Below, piece by piece: positions 3,576-45,905 of a stretch of DNA of 63,576 bases. Under the pieces are notes generated by a model. The model made no database searches, had not been told where the DNA came from, and worked only from the letters and a program-made list of their open reading frames with translations. Every line of letters begins with the position of its first letter. The stretch's first letter is position 1. A program made the translations under genes and the position numbers. The stretch lies in IMG/VR virus record IMGVR_UViG_3300005529_000035, positions 1-63,576 of that record. One strand, 5' to 3'. The DNA is from a virus. Lineage: Duplodnaviria; Caudoviricetes.

Positions 3576-3724
3576 TGCGGTACCAGCCTTTCCTCGGACT
3601 CCGGGGGATGCTGTGGCGGGCGCGTCAGGATCGCGGACAGCGCTTCAACGTTCGCGGCGAGACGGTCCAGCAGCGCGTCGAGGTCGGCCGTGACCTTGCG
3701 GACCTCAGAGTCCCGGGTTGCCAC
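3572..3724 (-). CDS. Small helical hypothetical protein (50 aa)
   Basis: Manual translation MATRDSEVRKVTADLDALLDRLAANVEALSAIL...; GGAGG RBS; ATGA overlap. Confidence 0.55.
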   Translation of the reverse strand: MATRDSEVRKVTADLDALLDRLAANVEALSAILTRPPQHPPESEERLVPQ

Positions 3725-3948
3725 CGGACCTCCCTGCTGGTTCCTCAGGTGTCAGGCTGGCGAGACGGCCTAACAGGTAGGACACCTGGGCGGCCTGGGC
3801 GATGGCGGTGGCGGCGAGCTCGCGGGCTTCTTCGTCGCTCATGCTGCCTCCGTGGGTCAGCGCCATGGCCGCGATCGACGCGGCGTCGGGGAGGCCCGCG
3901 GCACGGGCACGGGCGCGGGCTGCCATCAGCCGCGCCTCGTCCGAAACC

Positions 3949-36811: not shown

Positions 36812-37846
36812 TTATCCTCCCGCAGCGTGGATTGGCGTGGGCGTCTCTCTCTTGATGCGGGTCACGGTGGACTCGGAGACCCCTGCCTTCTTGGCCACCT
36901 CGTCAAGCGGCATGCGCGGCGTGGCCTCCAGGATGGCCTTCACCTTCGCGCGTTTGCGGGCGGTCGCGCTGACGGTCTTGCGAGGCGTCTTCTGACGGGC
37001 CTTCTGACCGTCATTCTGCGCCTGGTCCTGACGGTCGATCTGACGGCGCTCGCGGCGCACGCTGACGGCCAGCTTGTCGCCTTCGGTGACGGCCCTGGTG
37101 ACCATGTCCCTGACGGCCTGTTCCCACCCTCCGGTGACGCGTGCCCTGACGGCCTGCGTGGCGGCGCTGGTGACGGCGTCGCCGAGGCGGCCGGTGCTGA
37201 TGGCTGAGCGCAGGAGTGACGGTGCCTTGCGGCGCCACTGCCAGCGGCCGTAGTGGGCGCGGGCGAGGTCGCGGGCGAACAGCCGGGCCTCTTCCAGTTC
37301 GACCGCCACCGGGTAGGAGGTGACGTTACGCAGCACCATCCGCTTGCGCATGCCCGGCGTCCGCCACGGCGAGAGCAGCCAGCGGGCCCGCGGGATGCGC
37401 ACGGTCTCTCCGTCTCGCCGCTTCGCCAGTTTGCGCCATCGGGTCAGCTCGAGGAACACGATCCACAGCGCCGGCATGACGACGTGCAGGGCGCGGCCAA
37501 GCCAGTCATGGGCGGCAGCGCCGTGGGCGTTGACGTAGATGGTGAACGCCGCCAGCACCCAAGCCAGGGCGCGGGGCACGAGATCGGAGCGGTGGGCGTC
37601 GATGGCTTTGCGGGCTTCGACGATGAGGGCCAGGATCCCGACGTCGATGCCGAGTGGGTAGAGCACTGACCAGCCGGGCAGGCCGTGCTCGTGCGCCAGC
37701 TTGGCGATCGTCTGGAACGACACGGCGAAGCCGATGCCTGCCACGCCGAGCAGGAGCGGGTTGTCTGCGACGACAGCGCGTGCGTGCTTGCTCATGGAGG
37801 GCATCTTGACCGCCATCGGTGATCCTTTCCGGGATTTCCGGCTCAA
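36812..37846 (-). CDS. DUF2637 family membrane protein with C-terminal HTH (Spd-like)
   Basis: GFAVSF..I..LA..HG...LYPLGID, TIYVNA, H.VMP.LW, RIP..RWLLSP; terminal HTH VAKKAGVSESTVTR. Confidence 0.8.
   Translation of the reverse strand: MSRKSRKGSPMAVKMPSMSKHARAVVADNPLLLGVAGIGFAVSFQTIAKLAHEHGLPGWSVLYPLGIDVGILALIVEARKAIDAHRSDLVPRALAWVLAAFTIYVNAHGAAAHDWLGRALHVVMPALWIVFLELTRWRKLAKRRDGETVRIPRARWLLSPWRTPGMRKRMVLRNVTSYPVAVELEEARLFARDLARAHYGRWQWRRKAPSLLRSAISTGRLGDAVTSAATQAVRARVTGGWEQAVRDMVTRAVTEGDKLAVSVRRERRQIDRQDQAQNDGQKARQKTPRKTVSATARKRAKVKAILEATPRMPLDEVAKKAGVSESTVTRIKRETPTPIHAAGG
36969..37223. repeat. (C/G)TGACGG direct-repeat array with ~12-bp periodicity inside the DUF2637 gene
   Basis: 10 exact TGACGG copies plus TGACCG/TGACCA/TGACGC variants. 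Confidence 0.8.
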
Positions 37847-38343: not shown

Positions 38344-39021
38344 TCAGGCGTGGGGAACGAAGGCGTGGAAGGTCAGCAGGCCGGTGGCCAGCAGGAACAC
38401 CGGGGCGGCGATCACACGCTCAGGCAGAGTTCCGGTCGTGAATGCCGCAGGCTCCGGCAGCAGGTGATAGCGGCGCTTGGAGAACGGGAAGCCCAGCATG
38501 CAGCCCGAGTCCGTGAGCATGTCAGCGGCCACATGAGCTGAGCAGCCGAGCAGCACGGCGAGCGGTATCAGTGCCAGGCCGTAGCCGCGCCATATCACCA
38601 GGGCGGAGACTCCGATGGCCACGAGGTCGGCGGCGTGGCTGCGCAGGATCTTCAGCGCTTCGAGCATCCCGGAGACGCTGAAGGTGATGATGACCGCCAG
38701 GAACGCTTCTGCTGGCCAGGAGGGTAGGAAGCGGCAAGCGATCCATGCCAGCCCGGCGGTGACAGCGATGCCGAGGCAGGAGTGCGTCGCATGCCTGTGA
38801 CCGCCGGTTGCCTTGCCGACGATCCAGGCGACTCCCCGCGAGAACAGGCCCAGCGACCGCGAGACCGAGGAGCCGCAGTGGTCGATGTCAGGCCAGAGGG
38901 CCAGCGCCCCGGTGAAGGCGGCAAGCGTGATGACGCCGCCGGGTGGCGCGTGCATGACGAAGCCGCCGTAAGCCGCCCCTATGGCAGTGCCGGCCCAGGT
39001 GTGGGTCGCTCCGAGGCACAC
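38344..39021 (-). CDS. Membrane-bound metal-dependent hydrolase (YdjM/DUF457-like)
   Basis: TH, PDIDH, GHRHATHS and HVAADMLT metal-ligand motifs. Confidence 0.85.
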   Translation of the reverse strand: MCLGATHTWAGTAIGAAYGGFVMHAPPGGVITLAAFTGALALWPDIDHCGSSVSRSLGLFSRGVAWIVGKATGGHRHATHSCLGIAVTAGLAWIACRFLPSWPAEAFLAVIITFSVSGMLEALKILRSHAADLVAIGVSALVIWRGYGLALIPLAVLLGCSAHVAADMLTDSGCMLGFPFSKRRYHLLPEPAAFTTGTLPERVIAAPVFLLATGLLTFHAFVPHA

Positions 39022-39105
39022 CGCTCAGCCCTCCGGGTGGAGGCCCGGCGCGGCCAGTGGCGGCCAGCTGCCCGCGCCGGGCGTCTGTGGGTGGATATGA
39101 CCCGG

Positions 39106-39244
39106 TTGGACTCTCCCCTCCTGGGAGTCCACGGGCCGCTCCCCTGAGTCCAGGCGGGAGTCCAAAATGGACTCCGGGCAGTCCAATCTGGTGTCCACTC
39201 GCGCGCGCGTGCGTAGGTGCCTACGGGCGGGCGGCCGAGTCCAC
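39106..39244. repeat. clt-like (TraB recognition) octamer array, consensus GAGTCCAN
   Basis: Eight copies (six direct, two inverted) in the intergenic gap immediately 3' of traB. Confidence 0.7.
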
Positions 39245-39248
39245 GGGC

Positions 39249-41258
39249 TCACGGACGGCCTGCCGAGGCGAGCAGGCGGGAGTTCGCCTCACGGATGACC
39301 TCCAGCGCCGTCCAGACATCCTCGCCGGGAGCGGCCCGGTAGCGGCCCTTGCTGACGGCAGTCACCGAACCAGCGCTGACCAGCGCAGACAGTTGTGCCT
39401 GCACCCAGGAGCGGGACATCCCCGAGTCCTTCGCAAGATCACTAGGAGTGCGGCCATCCTCAGGTGCGGTCGTGACCAGCCGGGCGAAGGCGGCCTTGCG
39501 GCGCTCCATCTCGCTGGCGAGCTCGAAGTCCGTGGGGATCCGGGCCAGCGCCGACAGGGGAACGTCTGGCGTCTCCGCGATATCGGCCTCCACCTGTGCC
39601 GCCATCTCCACGGCGCTCTGGCTGGCGGGAGACGGCGCGGCGGGGGAGGGGGCAGCCGGAACCGGTGGCGGCGCTGGCGCCTGGTCCAGGCCCGCGCACT
39701 GCGGGGCGGCGGAACGGAACGCCTGCGGAAGCCGGTGCCAGCGCATGTCGTATGCCTCCTGATGATCATTCGCGTACAGCACCAGGGGAGTCCGCGACAG
39801 GGTGCTGTGGCGCCCGGCGATCTCCCGCACCAGTTCGTGTGGCATGTGCGGGCCGCGGGCAGCCTCGGACGCGGCCTCGGAACCAAGCTGGTAGTAGAAC
39901 GAGCCCTTGACGTTGAGCCGTGACGGGTTGAGCTTCGCCCAGTCGGACAGGGCGAACTGGCCGTGACGGTCGTCGTTGACGGCGAAGCAGATCCGGTGCT
40001 CGAGGTTGCCGCGGGTCTGCTCGGTGCGGACCGACTCACTTAGGGCCCCGTGCTGGGTGAGGACGATCACGTACACCGCGACACCGGAGCCCATGGACGC
40101 GATGGCGGCGAGCAGGTTGGCGCACTGGGTGTCGCCCCGGGCCATCGACGTGACCTCGTGGGTCTCGTCGATGATGATGAACAGCGCCGGGACTTCCCTG
40201 GTGGGGCGCAGCTGCTCGCTGCCGTCGTAGGCATAGGTGGCGCGCTGCTGGACTTCGGCGAGGGCAACGGTCAGCATGAGCCGGGCCTCGTCGATGGTGG
40301 TTGCCACCCAGTCGAGCGCGGCCATCCAGGGGCGGGTGGCCCGGCCGCCCTTCATGTCGATCAGCCACGGGCGGGCGTCGGCGCAGCCGGTGATGGTGGC
40401 CAGGAACGCGGACAGTTCGTTGGACTTGCCGCCGCGGGTGCGGCCGAGGATGAACCAGTTGACCAGCAGGCAGACCTTCACCCAGTCGCCGGATTCGGTC
40501 TTGCCGATCGGGGCGGGCTCGCTGATGGACGCCGGGGCGAGTGCCTGGTCCCATTCGATGTCGTCGCGCAGCGGGTTCTCCCGCCGCAGGTGGTAGACCA
40601 CGACCGAGGGATTGTCCGGGTCGACGTGGCCGCGGATCATGCCGTGCTTCACGTAGCCGCGCAGCGCGGCCTCGATCTGCGGGATGGCGTCCAGGAACTG
40701 CTGGCCGTGCTGCTTCCCGGCGTCCAGCTGCACCCGCAGGACTTCCACGTCGCGGCGGGGCTCGACGTCGATGACGCCGGAGCCTTCGCCGTGCCATGCG
40801 GGGCAGTGGTGCTGCCACCAGGCGTTCCACGACCGGACCAGGCGCACCGAGGACGAATGCAGGCGCTTGCGCTTGTGCAGCCACCACGGGATGCCCCAGG
40901 CCAGGGCCAGGACGCCCCCGGCGATCCATACTGGCTCGCTGAGCCCGTGGTAGGCGACGGCGGTCAGCCAGCCAGCACCGGCCAGCACGGAGCCGACCGC
41001 GTAGACCTGCTCGGCCGTGCGGTCCCACTTGTGCGGGGCGAAGAACCACACGCAGGCCAGGACCGCCGCGCCCGTGAGCAGGACAGGCAGCCTCCAGTGC
41101 TCAGCGAGCACGACCGCGGCAGCCAGGGTGGCCCCGGCGGGGACGGCCAGCAGCGGAACGGTGAGGTGACGGTGACGCCGTGCCCACAGCGGCACCAGCC
41201 ACGTCAGCCGTGGCCGGCCCGGCAGGGACGGCGGGTTGGGCGGTGTGCTCCTGGGCAT
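39249..41258 (-). CDS. traB: FtsK/SpoIIIE-family conjugative DNA translocase (TraB-like)
   Basis: N-terminal TM helices, Walker A GRTRGGKS, LIDMKGG, Walker B IIIDE, LTQ, C-terminal winged helix (GMSRSWVQAQL...GRYR). Confidence 0.88.
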   Translation of the reverse strand: MPRSTPPNPPSLPGRPRLTWLVPLWARRHRHLTVPLLAVPAGATLAAAVVLAEHWRLPVLLTGAAVLACVWFFAPHKWDRTAEQVYAVGSVLAGAGWLTAVAYHGLSEPVWIAGGVLALAWGIPWWLHKRKRLHSSSVRLVRSWNAWWQHHCPAWHGEGSGVIDVEPRRDVEVLRVQLDAGKQHGQQFLDAIPQIEAALRGYVKHGMIRGHVDPDNPSVVVYHLRRENPLRDDIEWDQALAPASISEPAPIGKTESGDWVKVCLLVNWFILGRTRGGKSNELSAFLATITGCADARPWLIDMKGGRATRPWMAALDWVATTIDEARLMLTVALAEVQQRATYAYDGSEQLRPTREVPALFIIIDETHEVTSMARGDTQCANLLAAIASMGSGVAVYVIVLTQHGALSESVRTEQTRGNLEHRICFAVNDDRHGQFALSDWAKLNPSRLNVKGSFYYQLGSEAASEAARGPHMPHELVREIAGRHSTLSRTPLVLYANDHQEAYDMRWHRLPQAFRSAAPQCAGLDQAPAPPPVPAAPSPAAPSPASQSAVEMAAQVEADIAETPDVPLSALARIPTDFELASEMERRKAAFARLVTTAPEDGRTPSDLAKDSGMSRSWVQAQLSALVSAGSVTAVSKGRYRAAPGEDVWTALEVIREANSRLLASAGRP

Positions 41259-42979: not shown

Positions 42980-43401
42980 CAGGGCCTCCGTGATGGTTGC
43001 GCGTCGGTGATGACGCGGACGGTGACCGGCTCACCGGAGATTGCGTACGGGGCCTCAATGGCCATGTCGGCGTGAGCGGGCTCAAGCACCGGGGCGGCCG
43101 GGCGCAGCACCGTTGCCTGTGCCACGGCGTGCAGGGCCGCACGCTCGGCCGGTGCCGGCATGCCGGGACGCCAGGTTGACGAGGTGGCCATCAGGTACCC
43201 GAACCAGGCGGTTCCGGCGATCGCGGCAGCAGCAAGGACGCCAATGAGCAGGTGGACCACGCCAAGAGCGGGACCGCCGATCACGGCGCAGGCCACAGCC
43301 GCAGCCGCCACGGCCACGCCAGCGAGCCAGCGCAGCCCCCTACGGCGCGAGCCACCGGACGTGATCACGACCGTCTCCGGGCGCCTGAAGATGATGCTCA
43401 T
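42979..43401 (-). CDS. Two-TM membrane protein
   Basis: Hydrophobic helices; coupled to whiB. Confidence 0.55.
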   Translation of the reverse strand: MSIIFRRPETVVITSGGSRRRGLRWLAGVAVAAAAVACAVIGGPALGVVHLLIGVLAAAAIAGTAWFGYLMATSSTWRPGMPAPAERAALHAVAQATVLRPAAPVLEPAHADMAIEAPYAISGEPVTVRVITDAQPSRRP

Positions 43402-43694
43402 GCCGCAGCCTCCATCTGGCGCTCGGTACGGATGACCCGGCGCTCCTGCTCCGAGGTGGCACCCCAGACGCCCCAGTCGTCAGCGCGGGAGGTCCGCAGG
43501 GCGTACTCAAGGCATTCCTGCTGCACCGCGCAGCCCTCGCAGATCCGCTTGGCCGGGCCGGAGGGCTGGCCCTTCTCCGGGAAGAAGGCTTCGGGGTCAG
43601 TGTCCAGGCATGACGCCCAGTCCATCCACTCCAGGTCGCGGGCCTGCTCCAGGATCTTGAGCAGGCGCATCATCGGCTTGGCGCCCCCGCTCAT
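43398..43694 (-). CDS. whiB: WhiB family transcriptional regulator
   Basis: ASCLDTDPEAFFPEKG..AKRICEGCAVQQECLEYAL..WGVWG. Confidence 0.93.
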   Translation of the reverse strand: MSGGAKPMMRLLKILEQARDLEWMDWASCLDTDPEAFFPEKGQPSGPAKRICEGCAVQQECLEYALRTSRADDWGVWGATSEQERRVIRTERQMEAAA

Positions 43695-43903
43695 GCAGAC
43701 CGCCCTCCCTCAACAGCGATGAGGTGGCCACGGCCTGCCCCGGCGCTGCGGGCGAGTTCGATGAACTCGGCACGGCCGGACAGGCCGGTGGCCTCGGCGA
43801 TGCCCTGGTCGATGTAGCCCCAGCCGCGGACAAGGGAATCCAGGCGCTGCTCGACGGCAGCGAGGCGCTGCTCGTGGTCGCAGCAGGGCTGGGGCTTGCT
43901 CAT
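43691..43903 (-). CDS. Hypothetical protein (70 aa)
   Basis: ATGA-coupled at both ends. Confidence 0.55.
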   Translation of the reverse strand: MSKPQPCCDHEQRLAAVEQRLDSLVRGWGYIDQGIAEATGLSGRAEFIELARSAGAGRGHLIAVEGGRSA

Positions 43904-44109
43904 GACGCCACCGCCTCGGTCTCGCCGGACAGGACGTCGACTTCGGACCCGGCGTAGCGGTGATGGCCGCCGAGGGTGCGCTTGTAGCGGATCTTGCCGG
44001 CCTTTGCCCACCGGGTGAGGCTGCGCGGGCTGACCGCGAGCTTGCGGGCGGCAGGACCGGGAAGCAGCCAGATCTCGCCGTCTGGGCGGCTGGGAGAGGT
44101 GCTGTCCAT
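43900..44109 (-). CDS. BldC/Xis-like MerR HTH protein
   Basis: LAVSPRSLTRWAKAGKI...RTLGGHHRY closely resembles the BldC family. Confidence 0.8.
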   Translation of the reverse strand: MDSTSPSRPDGEIWLLPGPAARKLAVSPRSLTRWAKAGKIRYKRTLGGHHRYAGSEVDVLSGETEAVAS

Positions 44110-44159
44110 CGTCCGGGTCGGTCCAATCGGCTCGGTTGACTGCTCTGACCGCTTCACGG

Positions 44160-44308: not shown

Positions 44309-44500
44309 GTGAAGATCGAGTTCATGTGGAAGACCGGCGACTCGAACACCGGCAACTGCCCAGCGAGGTACCGGGCACCCGGCGGCTACGTCATCCAGGG
44401 CAAGCGCCTGGATGACGAGACCCGCGCCCAGCTGCGCGACCTCGGCACCGATGAGGACGCCGTGTTCGTGCCGGACGATGTCATCGACGGGCTGGCCTGA
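44309..44500 (+). CDS. Small DUF6879-associated protein
   Basis: AAGGAG RBS; SNTGNCP..Y...GYVIQG...EDAVFVP pattern. Confidence 0.7.
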   Translation: MKIEFMWKTGDSNTGNCPARYRAPGGYVIQGKRLDDETRAQLRDLGTDEDAVFVPDDVIDGLA

Positions 44501-45030
44501 TGGGCATCCCTATCGCTGAGGACGAGTTCGGCGACCTGCTCAAGTCGTTCGGGCGCACGGCGTTCCGGTTCGAGACCCGCGAGTCCTACGCCCTGGACTA
44601 CGAGGAAGCCGACTTCGATGACTTCCTCGCCGGCCACCCGACGCCGCCACCGGACCTGGACTGGTGGCGGCCGTGGCTGGAGCAGATCGCCCATCTCACA
44701 GCCGAAGGCCGGGAAGTGCAGCGCGTCCGCGTCCTGGCCGAGCCGCCGAGCGACTACCAGCGCTGGGAGATGTGGGGAGCGCGGTGGAACATCAGCGCCG
44801 GGGAGCGCGTCGGCTACCTGACGCGCCAGCGGGCCCGTGATCTCGGCCTGCCGGACGCTGACTGGTGGCTGCTTGATGATGAGCGCGTGATCACCATGGG
44901 ATTCGACGACGACGGGCGCATCACCGGCAAGATGCTTGTCATCGATCCTGCGGTGATCACCCGTTACCGTGCTTGGCGGGACCTGGCAGTCCGTAACGCC
45001 ACCCCGGCGGAAGTGACCGCCGCCGCCTGA
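44500..45030 (+). CDS. DUF6879 family protein
   Basis: AFRFETRESY, RVRVLAEPPSDYQRWE, DWWLLDD. Confidence 0.85.
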   Translation: MGIPIAEDEFGDLLKSFGRTAFRFETRESYALDYEEADFDDFLAGHPTPPPDLDWWRPWLEQIAHLTAEGREVQRVRVLAEPPSDYQRWEMWGARWNISAGERVGYLTRQRARDLGLPDADWWLLDDERVITMGFDDDGRITGKMLVIDPAVITRYRAWRDLAVRNATPAEVTAAA

Positions 45031-45044
45031 CCCCGAGGACCCCG

Positions 45045-45905
45045 GTGCGACCGACTGGAGAATGGCTCAACCAGCCCGGCGGCCTTGCGGAGCGCCTCCT
45101 GCGCCTCCGCAAGGCCGCCGGGCTTACCGGCACTGTGCTCGCGGCTCAGCTTGGCTGGACGCCGTCCAAGGTGCCCAAGCTCGAGAACGGGCGCCAGATG
45201 CCGACCGAGGCCGACATCACGGCATGGGCTAACGCCACCGGGCAGCCGGACGCCATCCCGGAACTGCTGGGCATGCTTGCCGAGGCTCAGGTCGTGCACC
45301 GGCAGTACCGGCACCAGCTGCGCCGCGGGCTCGCGGGCATCCAGGAGGAACTGCAGGGGTTCGTGCGGGAGGCCAAGCGCATCCGCAACTTCGAGATCAT
45401 GTTCATCCCCGGGCTGCTGCAGACACCCGACTACGCCCGGTACCGGATGCTGGACGCGGTGCGCAATCACGGGTTCGCCGAAGAAGGCGTGGACGCCGCA
45501 GTGGCGGCGAAGATGCGCCGGCAGGAGATCCTTTACGAGAGCGACCGCGAGTTCGAGTTCGTCATCATGGAGGTCGCGCTCTGGGTACGCGTGTGCCCGG
45601 CTCCCGTGATGCTCGGCCAGCTGGACCGGCTCCAGACCGCCAGCGGGCTCAGCAACGTCACGCTCGGCATCATCCCGCTGGACGCCGAGCTCGACCTGGC
45701 CCCGGACGTCGGGTTCCTGATCGCCGATGACGTCGCCTACGTCGAGACTGCGGCATCGGAGGACATGCTGCGTGGCGAGGAAGCGGCCACTTACAGCCGC
45801 TTTGCTGACCGGCTGCGAGCCGAGTCTGTGACAGGCGATGAGGCTCGCGCTCTGATCACGTCCGCAGCACGCAGATTGCGCCAGGGCATGGGAGACGGGG
45901 AGTGA
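45045..45905 (+). CDS. XRE HTH regulator with DUF5753 domain
   Basis: LRKAAGLTG..LA..LGW..SKV.KLENG, IPGLLQTPDYA, QLDRL. Confidence 0.9.
   Translation: MRPTGEWLNQPGGLAERLLRLRKAAGLTGTVLAAQLGWTPSKVPKLENGRQMPTEADITAWANATGQPDAIPELLGMLAEAQVVHRQYRHQLRRGLAGIQEELQGFVREAKRIRNFEIMFIPGLLQTPDYARYRMLDAVRNHGFAEEGVDAAVAAKMRRQEILYESDREFEFVIMEVALWVRVCPAPVMLGQLDRLQTASGLSNVTLGIIPLDAELDLAPDVGFLIADDVAYVETAASEDMLRGEEAATYSRFADRLRAESVTGDEARALITSAARRLRQGMGDGE

Follow-up and report, generated by a model that had tools for sequence, protein, structure and literature searches.

A clt-like octamer array behind a TraB-like translocase gene of a tailed phage, and covariation of its word with the translocase winged helix

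Transfer of double-stranded DNA by a TraB protein acting on a clt locus is known from Streptomyces plasmids and AICEs. FtsK and SpoIIIE proteins pump or segregate DNA within one organism, and in the FtsK-KOPS and SpoIIIE-SRS systems an 8-bp word is read by the C-terminal winged helix. As far as the accessible portions of the respective publications go, TraB hexamers assemble on clt, whose 8-bp direct repeats are recognised by alpha-3, a helix of the winged-helix domain; in pIJ101, pJV1 and pWTY27, whose clt loci have been tested, direct repeats occur together with inverted ones, at the tra gene or immediately behind it (PMC4447253, PMC4170104, PMC3583192). SpdB2 homologues are recorded on some actinophages in the available part of one of these sources (PMC4447253), and two others, likewise available in part, merely list actinophage FtsK-like genes or tie them loosely to segregation or development (PMC4569894, PMC10117723). 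Our literature searches, which did not cover supplementary files, returned no description of a phage-borne TraB-clt pair.

Here we show that a tailed phage record carries an array of octamers directly behind a gene whose product has a TraB-like architecture and fold, that such arrays are conserved across a family of homologous loci, and that the repeated word covaries with the recognition helix of the encoded protein.

The octamer array and its setting

The DNA analysed here, referred to as the window, is an entire virus record of 63,576 bp, listed as linear and estimated to be 63% complete, and encodes a tape measure, a portal, a large terminase, an amidase, a RecT-like protein and a WhiB-like protein. 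Minus-strand genes extend from about 1.4 to 44 kb and follow one another in the order HTH_17/MerR-like gene, WhiB gene, four genes without family match, translocase gene, array, YdjM-type hydrolase gene, a 150-aa gene, the gene of a DUF2637 and HTH protein, two further genes and the terminase gene. The features of the locus are as follows:

43900-44157, minus strand: HTH_17/MerR-like (excisionase-type) gene, at the head of the minus-strand block of the translocase gene
43398-43694, minus strand: gene of a WhiB-like regulator, at the head of the same block
39249-41258, minus strand: traB-like gene encoding P0001 (669 aa, FtsK/SpoIIIE-type), identified by sequence, profile and fold matches
39106-39244, no strand assigned: clt-like array of eight octamers (GAGTCCA type), 3' of the traB-like gene
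39198-39230, minus strand: central element, GC-rich and able to form a hairpin, separating the first copy from the main array; degenerate form of a block that the family conserves
39040-39085, minus strand: strong GC hairpin with 18-nt arms of 89% complementarity, located past the array and ahead of the ribosome-binding site of the hydrolase gene
39025-39252, minus strand: 75-codon ORF that runs through the entire gap from a GTG start overlapping the stop of traB; dismissed as the source of the repeats
38344-39021, minus strand: gene of a YdjM-type membrane-bound metal-dependent hydrolase (PF04307, E 1.4e-18), the next gene downstream
36812-37846, minus strand: gene of a DUF2637 membrane protein with a C-terminal HTH (PF10935, E 6e-17), 1.2 kb beyond the array

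A divergently transcribed pair encoding a DUF6879 protein and an HTH_31 plus DUF5753 protein is located at 44500-45905 of the window (plus strand).

A preliminary description of this DNA had reported eight octamers with alternating spacings of 21 and 12 bp. The array could be confirmed, with seven of the eight copies located where they had been placed and the second inverted 8-mer at 39167-39174 instead of 39168. Read on the plus strand, the direct copies are GAGTCCAC (39125), GAGTCCAG (39146), GAGTCCAA (39158), CAGTCCAA (39179), GTGTCCAC (39191) and GAGTCCAC again (39237), and the inverted ones are TTGGACTC (39106-39113) and ATGGACTC (39167-39174). On the coding strand of traB the word reads nTGGACTC, an orientation taken by six copies (39244-39237, 39198-39191, 39186-39179, 39165-39158, 39153-39146 and 39132-39125). 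The same-strand spacings were indeed measured as 21, 12, 21 and 12 bp, giving a period of 33 bp or roughly three helical turns. The first copy is found 5 nt past the stop codon (39249-39251) of the traB-like gene, and the array occupies the 227-bp gap between this gene and the hydrolase gene.

Exact GAGTCCA matches number 15 on both strands of the window, and six of these fall inside 39107-39243, compared with 0.019 expected in the 137 bp of the array from the nine matches elsewhere (Poisson P(>=6) = 7e-14). The densest 140-bp stretch for the shorter core GTCCA/TGGAC starts at 39107 with eight copies, the next densest unrelated stretches holding four. The nine copies outside the array (seven on the plus and two on the minus strand) compare with 9.4 expected for the whole window, and a KOPS-like dispersal of the word with strand skew was not seen across the 63.6 kb. 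The array is therefore the sole cluster of its word in the record, which fits the earlier proposal that the phage genome itself is the target, binding data being absent.

Neither a tyrosine or serine integrase nor a tRNA gene was found in the record at its completeness of about 63%, the ORFs scanned in this incomplete record include no GntR-type TraR, and no replication initiator or ParA/ParB gene adjoins the array among the ORFs scanned. Since the record is incomplete, other word clusters or partner genes could lie outside it. The record of the closest relative, which is 88.9 kb long, has terminal repeats and is rated complete, contains a tyrosine integrase and a large terminase, and in the four related records where a large terminase was found the array locus lies 4.5-11 kb upstream of it on the same strand. 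In a 131-kb related record the large terminase (G004:C1:67778-69455), with 65% identity to that of the window, matches it in two pieces with a TAA within the longer one. DNA relatives among deposited phages, near or distant, amounted to just one 46-bp match. Relatives of the DUF2637 protein of the window occur in 327 plasmid records and hold the SpdB2 position beside traA-traB on Streptomyces conjugative plasmids, in the order DUF2637 - traA - traB.

Within the remainder of the gap, the inverted-repeat arms of the central element span 39197-39217 and 39220-39240. The hairpin at 39040-39085 has no T tract and is found in the window only, being missing from the four other loci of the five-locus alignment A2. 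Neither a sigma-70-type promoter nor an intrinsic terminator consensus was found. As RNA, the gap folds better than its shuffles (z = -3.55) because of the inverted copies; a search for known RNA families gave a single Rfam match at E 0.99, and RNAalifold returned no consensus pairs in the central element. A structured RNA thus finds no support from Rfam or consensus folding.

The preliminary description had also taken the adjacent gene for a traB, and the organization of P0001 bears this out as TraB-like, with membrane helices, an FtsK/TcpA-type motor and a C-terminal winged helix. Four long hydrophobic N-terminal helices (approximately residues 30-128) are apparent from the sequence and the AF2 model (pLDDT 85.6), with no dedicated transmembrane predictor behind them. 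They are followed by an FtsK/SpoIIIE-type motor at about 160-520 (Walker A G272..G277-K278-S279, Walker B D364-E365), a linker of low confidence in the AF2 model (533-547) and a winged helix composed of helices 577-596 and 605-612, the recognition helix 616-629, a wing (632-642) and a last helix 648-667. The Walker A and B residues G272, K278, D364 and E365 do not vary among 36 homologues; this is in keeping with a working module and agrees with the earlier view that it is probably functional, in the absence of binding or transfer data.

The motor matches the phage FtsK/SpoIIIE-like family phrog_31069 (E 6e-26); PDB profile matches were obtained with TcpA of pCW3 (2.8e-7) and FtsK (1e-4), and Foldseek matches with TcpA (6o1x, E 4e-17) and the FtsK motor (6t8b, E 5e-17). 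The best named relative of P0001 is the NCBIfam family NF041214 plasmid_TraB (E 6e-17), at 61.3 bits against a cut-off of 800, and a score so far under the curated cut-off does not meet the requirement for a plasmid_TraB equivalog, as judged by this profile. P0001 also remains under the Pfam FtsK_SpoIIIE cut-off, and the Pfam wHTH families that match residues 593-657 all do so under theirs. Folded alone, the C-terminal domain is modelled as an H-H-H-beta-beta winged helix (AF2, pLDDT 94), for which the nearest solved folds are wHTH regulators (IdeR, IclR, MarR, ArsR), the best being the IdeR wHTH at E 4e-3. No PDB match of the isolated domain reached E <= 0.001, and the FtsK gamma domain was not among the matches listed.

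Homologous loci and covariation of the word with the recognition helix

A search of a large protein collection returned 95 homologues of P0001, the closest 94 of which share 36-58% identity over 58-100% of the query, the 95th being a weak partial match (E 2e-20). Nearly all are metagenomic, two being named as Actinomycetota or Streptosporangiaceae. Together with the 84 loci that were fetched, the window makes 85 loci; the gene is present in all 85, and removal of duplicates and of loci with under 250 bp behind the stop leaves 53.

Repeats were scored in the 200 bp after the stop as exact 6-mers with at least two A/T, using 2353 windows as controls. Under these conditions, a 6-mer occurring at least four times was encountered in 47 of the 53 loci compared to 136/2353 controls (5.8%), and one occurring at least five times in 39/53 compared to 37/2353 (1.6%; Mann-Whitney p = 9e-40 for the repeat counts of downstream and control windows). 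The downstream window tops all control windows of its own locus in 29 of the 53 loci only. A looser statistic, 7-mers with one mismatch, did not discriminate (23/53); its background was too high, and exact 6-mers were used instead. These counts establish that the array is conserved in kind across a large metagenomic family.

Typically, the coding strand of a homologous locus presents, in this order, the stop, zero to three inverted words, a GC-rich block, three to eight direct words spaced mostly 9-13 bp apart, a box and a ribosome-binding site. The GC-rich block (core approximately ACGCGCG[CT]AGGCG, followed by alternating GC) is kept across loci with different words, lies about 40-95 nt after the traB-like stop and divides inverted from direct words. 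Given the lack of RNAalifold consensus pairs, it looks like a sequence-specific site and not a simple terminator. The box, approximately CACGCAGAGTGAC, matches at 9 or more of 13 positions in 43/53 loci and is placed about 125-175 nt from the stop, with 5-15 nt separating it from the ribosome-binding site of whichever gene follows; in the window it is weak (8/13 positions, about 39081-39093). Its dinucleotides (GA 29, AA 9, AG 2, GG 2, CA 1, plus 10 low-score loci) fit independent purine variation, and a constrained stop codon was rejected on these counts. A recurrent promoter was also rejected, with 25 matches in the window against 34.8 expected.

The array of the window is atypical for the family, in that its first copy is direct and not inverted, two inverted copies are interspersed, the central block is degenerate and the box is weak. 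The downstream gene, which in the window is of YdjM type, differs among homologous loci, and the array stays attached to the traB-like gene.

A conserved, expressed ORF at 39025-39252 had been named beforehand as a finding that would refute the clt-like reading. This ORF exists, with GC1/2/3 = 0.72/0.63/0.82 (a GC2 of 0.63 being high for a gene here), but it has no family match in a profile search and is not conserved: a same-strand ORF over the array is absent in 5/43 loci, namely the closest relative (L001) and four others. An ORF on either strand covers the array in 43/43 testable loci, a test that is uninformative in DNA of such high GC. Moreover, 65/145 repeat spacings are multiples of 3 with a peak at 9-13 bp, and thus follow the DNA helix and not codons. 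A small gene was consequently rejected as the source of the repeats, and the refutation does not hold.

The word itself changes among loci. TGGACTC is found in the window and two other loci, and TGGACAC, CGAACAA, CGGACAA, GGACGA, CGGAGGA, TGGAGGT, TGGAAAA, TGACAGT and CCGGAAT elsewhere. Word labels were fixed before the protein alignment was viewed, and were typed in the script that first printed this alignment. In the alignment, a protein segment S-G-x-x-x-x-W-x-x sorts by word:

SRSW in the helix: TGGAC[AT]
GRTW in the helix: CGAACAA
GH[ST]W in the helix: CGGACAA
S[TS]SWIHP in the helix: GGACGA
[AG][KS]SW in the helix: CGGAGG

This relationship was quantified in the 46 of 53 loci with at least 480 residues and a word label. 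The distance between words correlates with that between helices (r = 0.28) and not with that between the rest of the proteins (r = 0.03), and the partial Mantel correlation of motif and helix given the rest of the protein is 0.285, a value reached in 0/2000 permutations. When the last 480 residues were scanned in 442 nine-column windows, the top nine all fell in 607-623 (peak 0.354, mean 0.002, sd 0.094), and a label-free scan, in which loci were compared by the Jaccard distance of their repeated 6-mers, placed its ten highest-scoring windows (of 436) within 607-624. Residues 607-624 correspond to the turn and recognition helix of the winged helix, and are the sole stretch within the last 480 residues that tracks the differences between words. 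The covariation of repeat and helix, which the preliminary description had put forward as a check, is thus present and confined to this part of the protein.

Individual pairs of loci illustrate the same point. L045 and L056 share 93% body identity and differ in the helix (RGRTWC and RGSSWV) and in the word (CGAACAA and GGAGGA). L038 and L045, at 90% identity, differ by a G-to-S exchange in the helix and an R-to-Y exchange in the wing, with TGACAGT and CGAACAA as their words. These two pairs and L015/L024 are 90-97% identical outside the winged helix with differing helices and words, suggesting that helix and site are exchanged together by recombination. Per-position mutual information, calculated without correction for relatedness, pairs S615 with base 1, R616 with bases 5-6, S617 and V619 with base 3, and Q620 and K637 of the wing with base 7. 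With high confidence, although by sequence comparison alone, the winged helix and the repeats can be taken to belong together, their physical binding being inferred. The DNA-reading tip of P0001 appears to recognise the repeated words, in the absence of binding data.

A putative loading site and competing explanations

Taken together, the clustering of the word, the TraB-like architecture of P0001, the arrays found across the family and the covariation of word and helix make it most likely that the array is a cognate clt-like loading site, and the tested plasmid clt loci, in which repeats split by an inverted repeat directly follow the tra gene in the accessible part of PMC3583192, offer a supporting likeness, as does the Streptomyces plasmid NZ_CP108216.1. 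Further support comes from the DUF2637 gene in the vicinity, given that its relatives adjoin traA-traB on plasmids and that SpdB2 homologues are recorded on some actinophages (PMC4447253). We therefore regard it as probable that the array acts in cis as a recognition and loading site, similar to clt/TRS, for the TraB-like dsDNA translocase encoded just upstream, binding and transfer both being inferences.

These findings suggest a model in which the four N-terminal helices would hold the TraB-like protein in the membrane and an FtsK-type ring would form, with the winged helix of each subunit flexibly tethered by the linker. One TGGACTC word would be read by the turn and recognition helix (S615, R616, S617, V619, Q620) and the wing (K637). 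The five same-orientation copies, spaced by 21/12/21/12 bp, would put their sites on roughly one face of the DNA, so that several winged helices of one ring could engage together. The ring, once loaded on the phage DNA, would pump it across a septum or the cell envelope using ATP, and the outcome may be that the phage genome spreads or segregates without virions in a host that is a filamentous actinomycete, perhaps with help from the DUF2637 membrane protein (SpdB2 position) encoded 1.2 kb further. Our confidence in a transport role of the phage TraB-like protein is moderate, with ring loading, direction of transport and biological role all inferred.

Several other explanations have to be weighed against a loading site for transfer. 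In the first, the winged helix does bind the repeats, but for segregation or anchoring of phage or prophage DNA within one organism, for example by pumping or tethering it at septa formed during sporulation or vegetative growth, or by plasmid-like partition. FtsK/SpoIIIE proteins generally act in this way, and a WhiB-like gene stands in the block of the translocase gene. In the accessible parts of the sources, 'DNA segregation' was proposed for the FtsK-like ORF63 of phage P1312 by its authors (PMC4569894), and a review regards the ftsK genes of phages as a means of manipulating the development of the host (PMC10117723). Nevertheless, the nearest named family of P0001 is plasmid TraB and not chromosomal FtsK, the gene in SpdB2 position points to plasmid spread machinery, and a genome-wide, oriented word distribution of the KOPS type is lacking, as indicated above by the counts outside the array. 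We consider this explanation unlikely, while noting that segregation or anchoring and transfer between cells cannot be separated by sequence alone.

Rather less support remains for the winged helix as a transcription factor, acting on traB itself or on the downstream operon, with the array as an operator or enhancer and not a loading site. The wHTH regulators found as closest structural neighbours of the isolated domain would agree with this, as would the position of the array upstream of the next genes on the same strand and the box between array and ribosome-binding site in most loci. However, the winged helix forms one protein with a motor that is anchored in the membrane and whose ATPase residues are invariant, the array stays with traB and the downstream gene varies, no sigma-70-type promoter was found, and in the window the box is weak without any excess of box-like matches. 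A regulatory role appears quite improbable on this evidence, although sequence alone does not decide between it and transfer or segregation.

That the repeats are bound by another protein, whether as replication-origin iterons, for partition or as a terminase (pac) site, is very improbable. Short phased repeat arrays are typical of all three, the large terminase is encoded downstream on the same strand in the four related records mentioned above, and the DUF2637 protein has an HTH of its own; on the other hand, word and TraB-like recognition helix covary specifically, and this localised covariation makes a different binding protein unlikely. An AT-rich unwinding region is also missing at the array locus (GC ~0.70 across 39-40 kb), no initiator or ParA/ParB gene adjoins it among the ORFs scanned, and, against an iteron origin, its constant neighbour is the translocase gene. 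It is scarcely credible that the repeats are a by-product of the small gene or of a structured RNA, for which the open frame of 75 codons with its overlapping GTG start and GC3 of 0.82 and the folding of the gap beyond its shuffles can be cited, given the missing family match, the high GC2, the five loci without the same-strand ORF, the spacings and the negative Rfam and RNAalifold results.

A clt-like loading site for the TraB-like translocase, as favoured above, suggests that the genome of this phage of filamentous soil bacteria could pass from one cell or compartment to another with no virus particle involved, the transfer itself being inferred. If phages do use a TraB-like pump with its own loading site, this would constitute a virion-independent route of phage spread, and the boundary between phages and conjugative elements would blur in filamentous bacteria. 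Only as a tentative extension do we propose that widespread tailed, partly temperate phages of filamentous actinomycetes may carry a complete plasmid-type module for dsDNA conjugation and spread (TraB-like pump, co-evolving clt-like site and SpdB2-position protein) allowing virion-independent passage of the genome between hyphal compartments or mycelia, in which rapidly swapped pairs of helix and word would keep the pump specific for its own DNA. The family further provides a natural specificity table of about a dozen words paired with helix variants, which is open to helix-swap predictions, and Thermobifida phage P1312 represents a cultured system that appears to have the same kind of cluster.

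Comparison with known systems

Among phage-borne genes, the closest parallels are the FtsK/SpoIIIE-like genes of actinophages (Thermobifida phage P1312 and Streptomyces phages Hiyaa, Spocter and Keanu), whose products show 22-28% identity to P0001 over 37-44% of its length. In P1312 (L086, KT021004.1), all four exact GTGTCAC copies in 5.8 kb (4/4) fall within 156 bp (3668-3823) straddling the ORF63 stop, a cluster that also holds further GTCACA copies, and the clt repeat of pWTY27, TGACACC, reads GGTGTCA on its opposite strand. The accessible part of the P1312 paper does not mention this cluster (PMC4569894). No array was found after the FtsK-like gene of Hiyaa, and arrays are thus not universal among phage FtsK-like genes.

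TcpA of the Clostridium perfringens plasmid pCW3 is the top structural and sequence-profile match of the P0001 motor. It works in a multi-protein conjugation apparatus, and the PDB titles mention neither an adjacent repeat array nor a C-terminal winged helix. The motor fold is also shared with FtsK-KOPS and SpoIIIE-SRS (6t8b, 2iuu). Unlike the words of these systems, that of the phage is confined to one 140-bp cluster and is not skewed over the replicon, and a likeness of the isolated winged helix of P0001 to FtsK gamma was not found.

The phage locus differs from plasmid and AICE TraB-clt systems in its carrier, a tailed phage with tape measure, portal and large terminase, in a similarity of only about 25% between P0001 and Streptomyces plasmid TraB proteins, in its word TGGACTC and in the absence of a GntR-type TraR among the ORFs scanned. 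A further difference from plasmid clt is that, in most loci of the phage family, proximal and distal copies face opposite ways on either side of a GC-rich block conserved in sequence. What it shares with Streptomyces TraB-clt/TRS (pSVH1, pIJ101, pJV1, pWTY27) is a single FtsK-like, membrane-anchored translocase with a C-terminal winged helix and, as in Streptomyces conjugative plasmids, a DUF2637 gene (SpdB2 position) near the translocase gene. Like plasmid clt, as covered by the available parts of PMC3583192 and PMC4447253, it has direct repeats of 7-9 bp, interrupted by an inverted repeat, from the tra stop onward; the earlier characterization of clt as arrays of short direct repeats beside traB that are read by alpha-3 agrees with the same sources. 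The Streptomyces plasmid NZ_CP108216.1 likewise carries CCGCACA[CG][CG] copies split by an inverted repeat right after traB, with a DUF2637 gene beside traA-traB, and the pWTY27 repeat TGACACC and its C-rich CCCGCCC resemble the TGGACACC words of the phage family and the C-rich run before the central element. Overall, the phage system is best read as plasmid TraB-clt logic in tailed phages, with a very divergent protein and a word family of its own.
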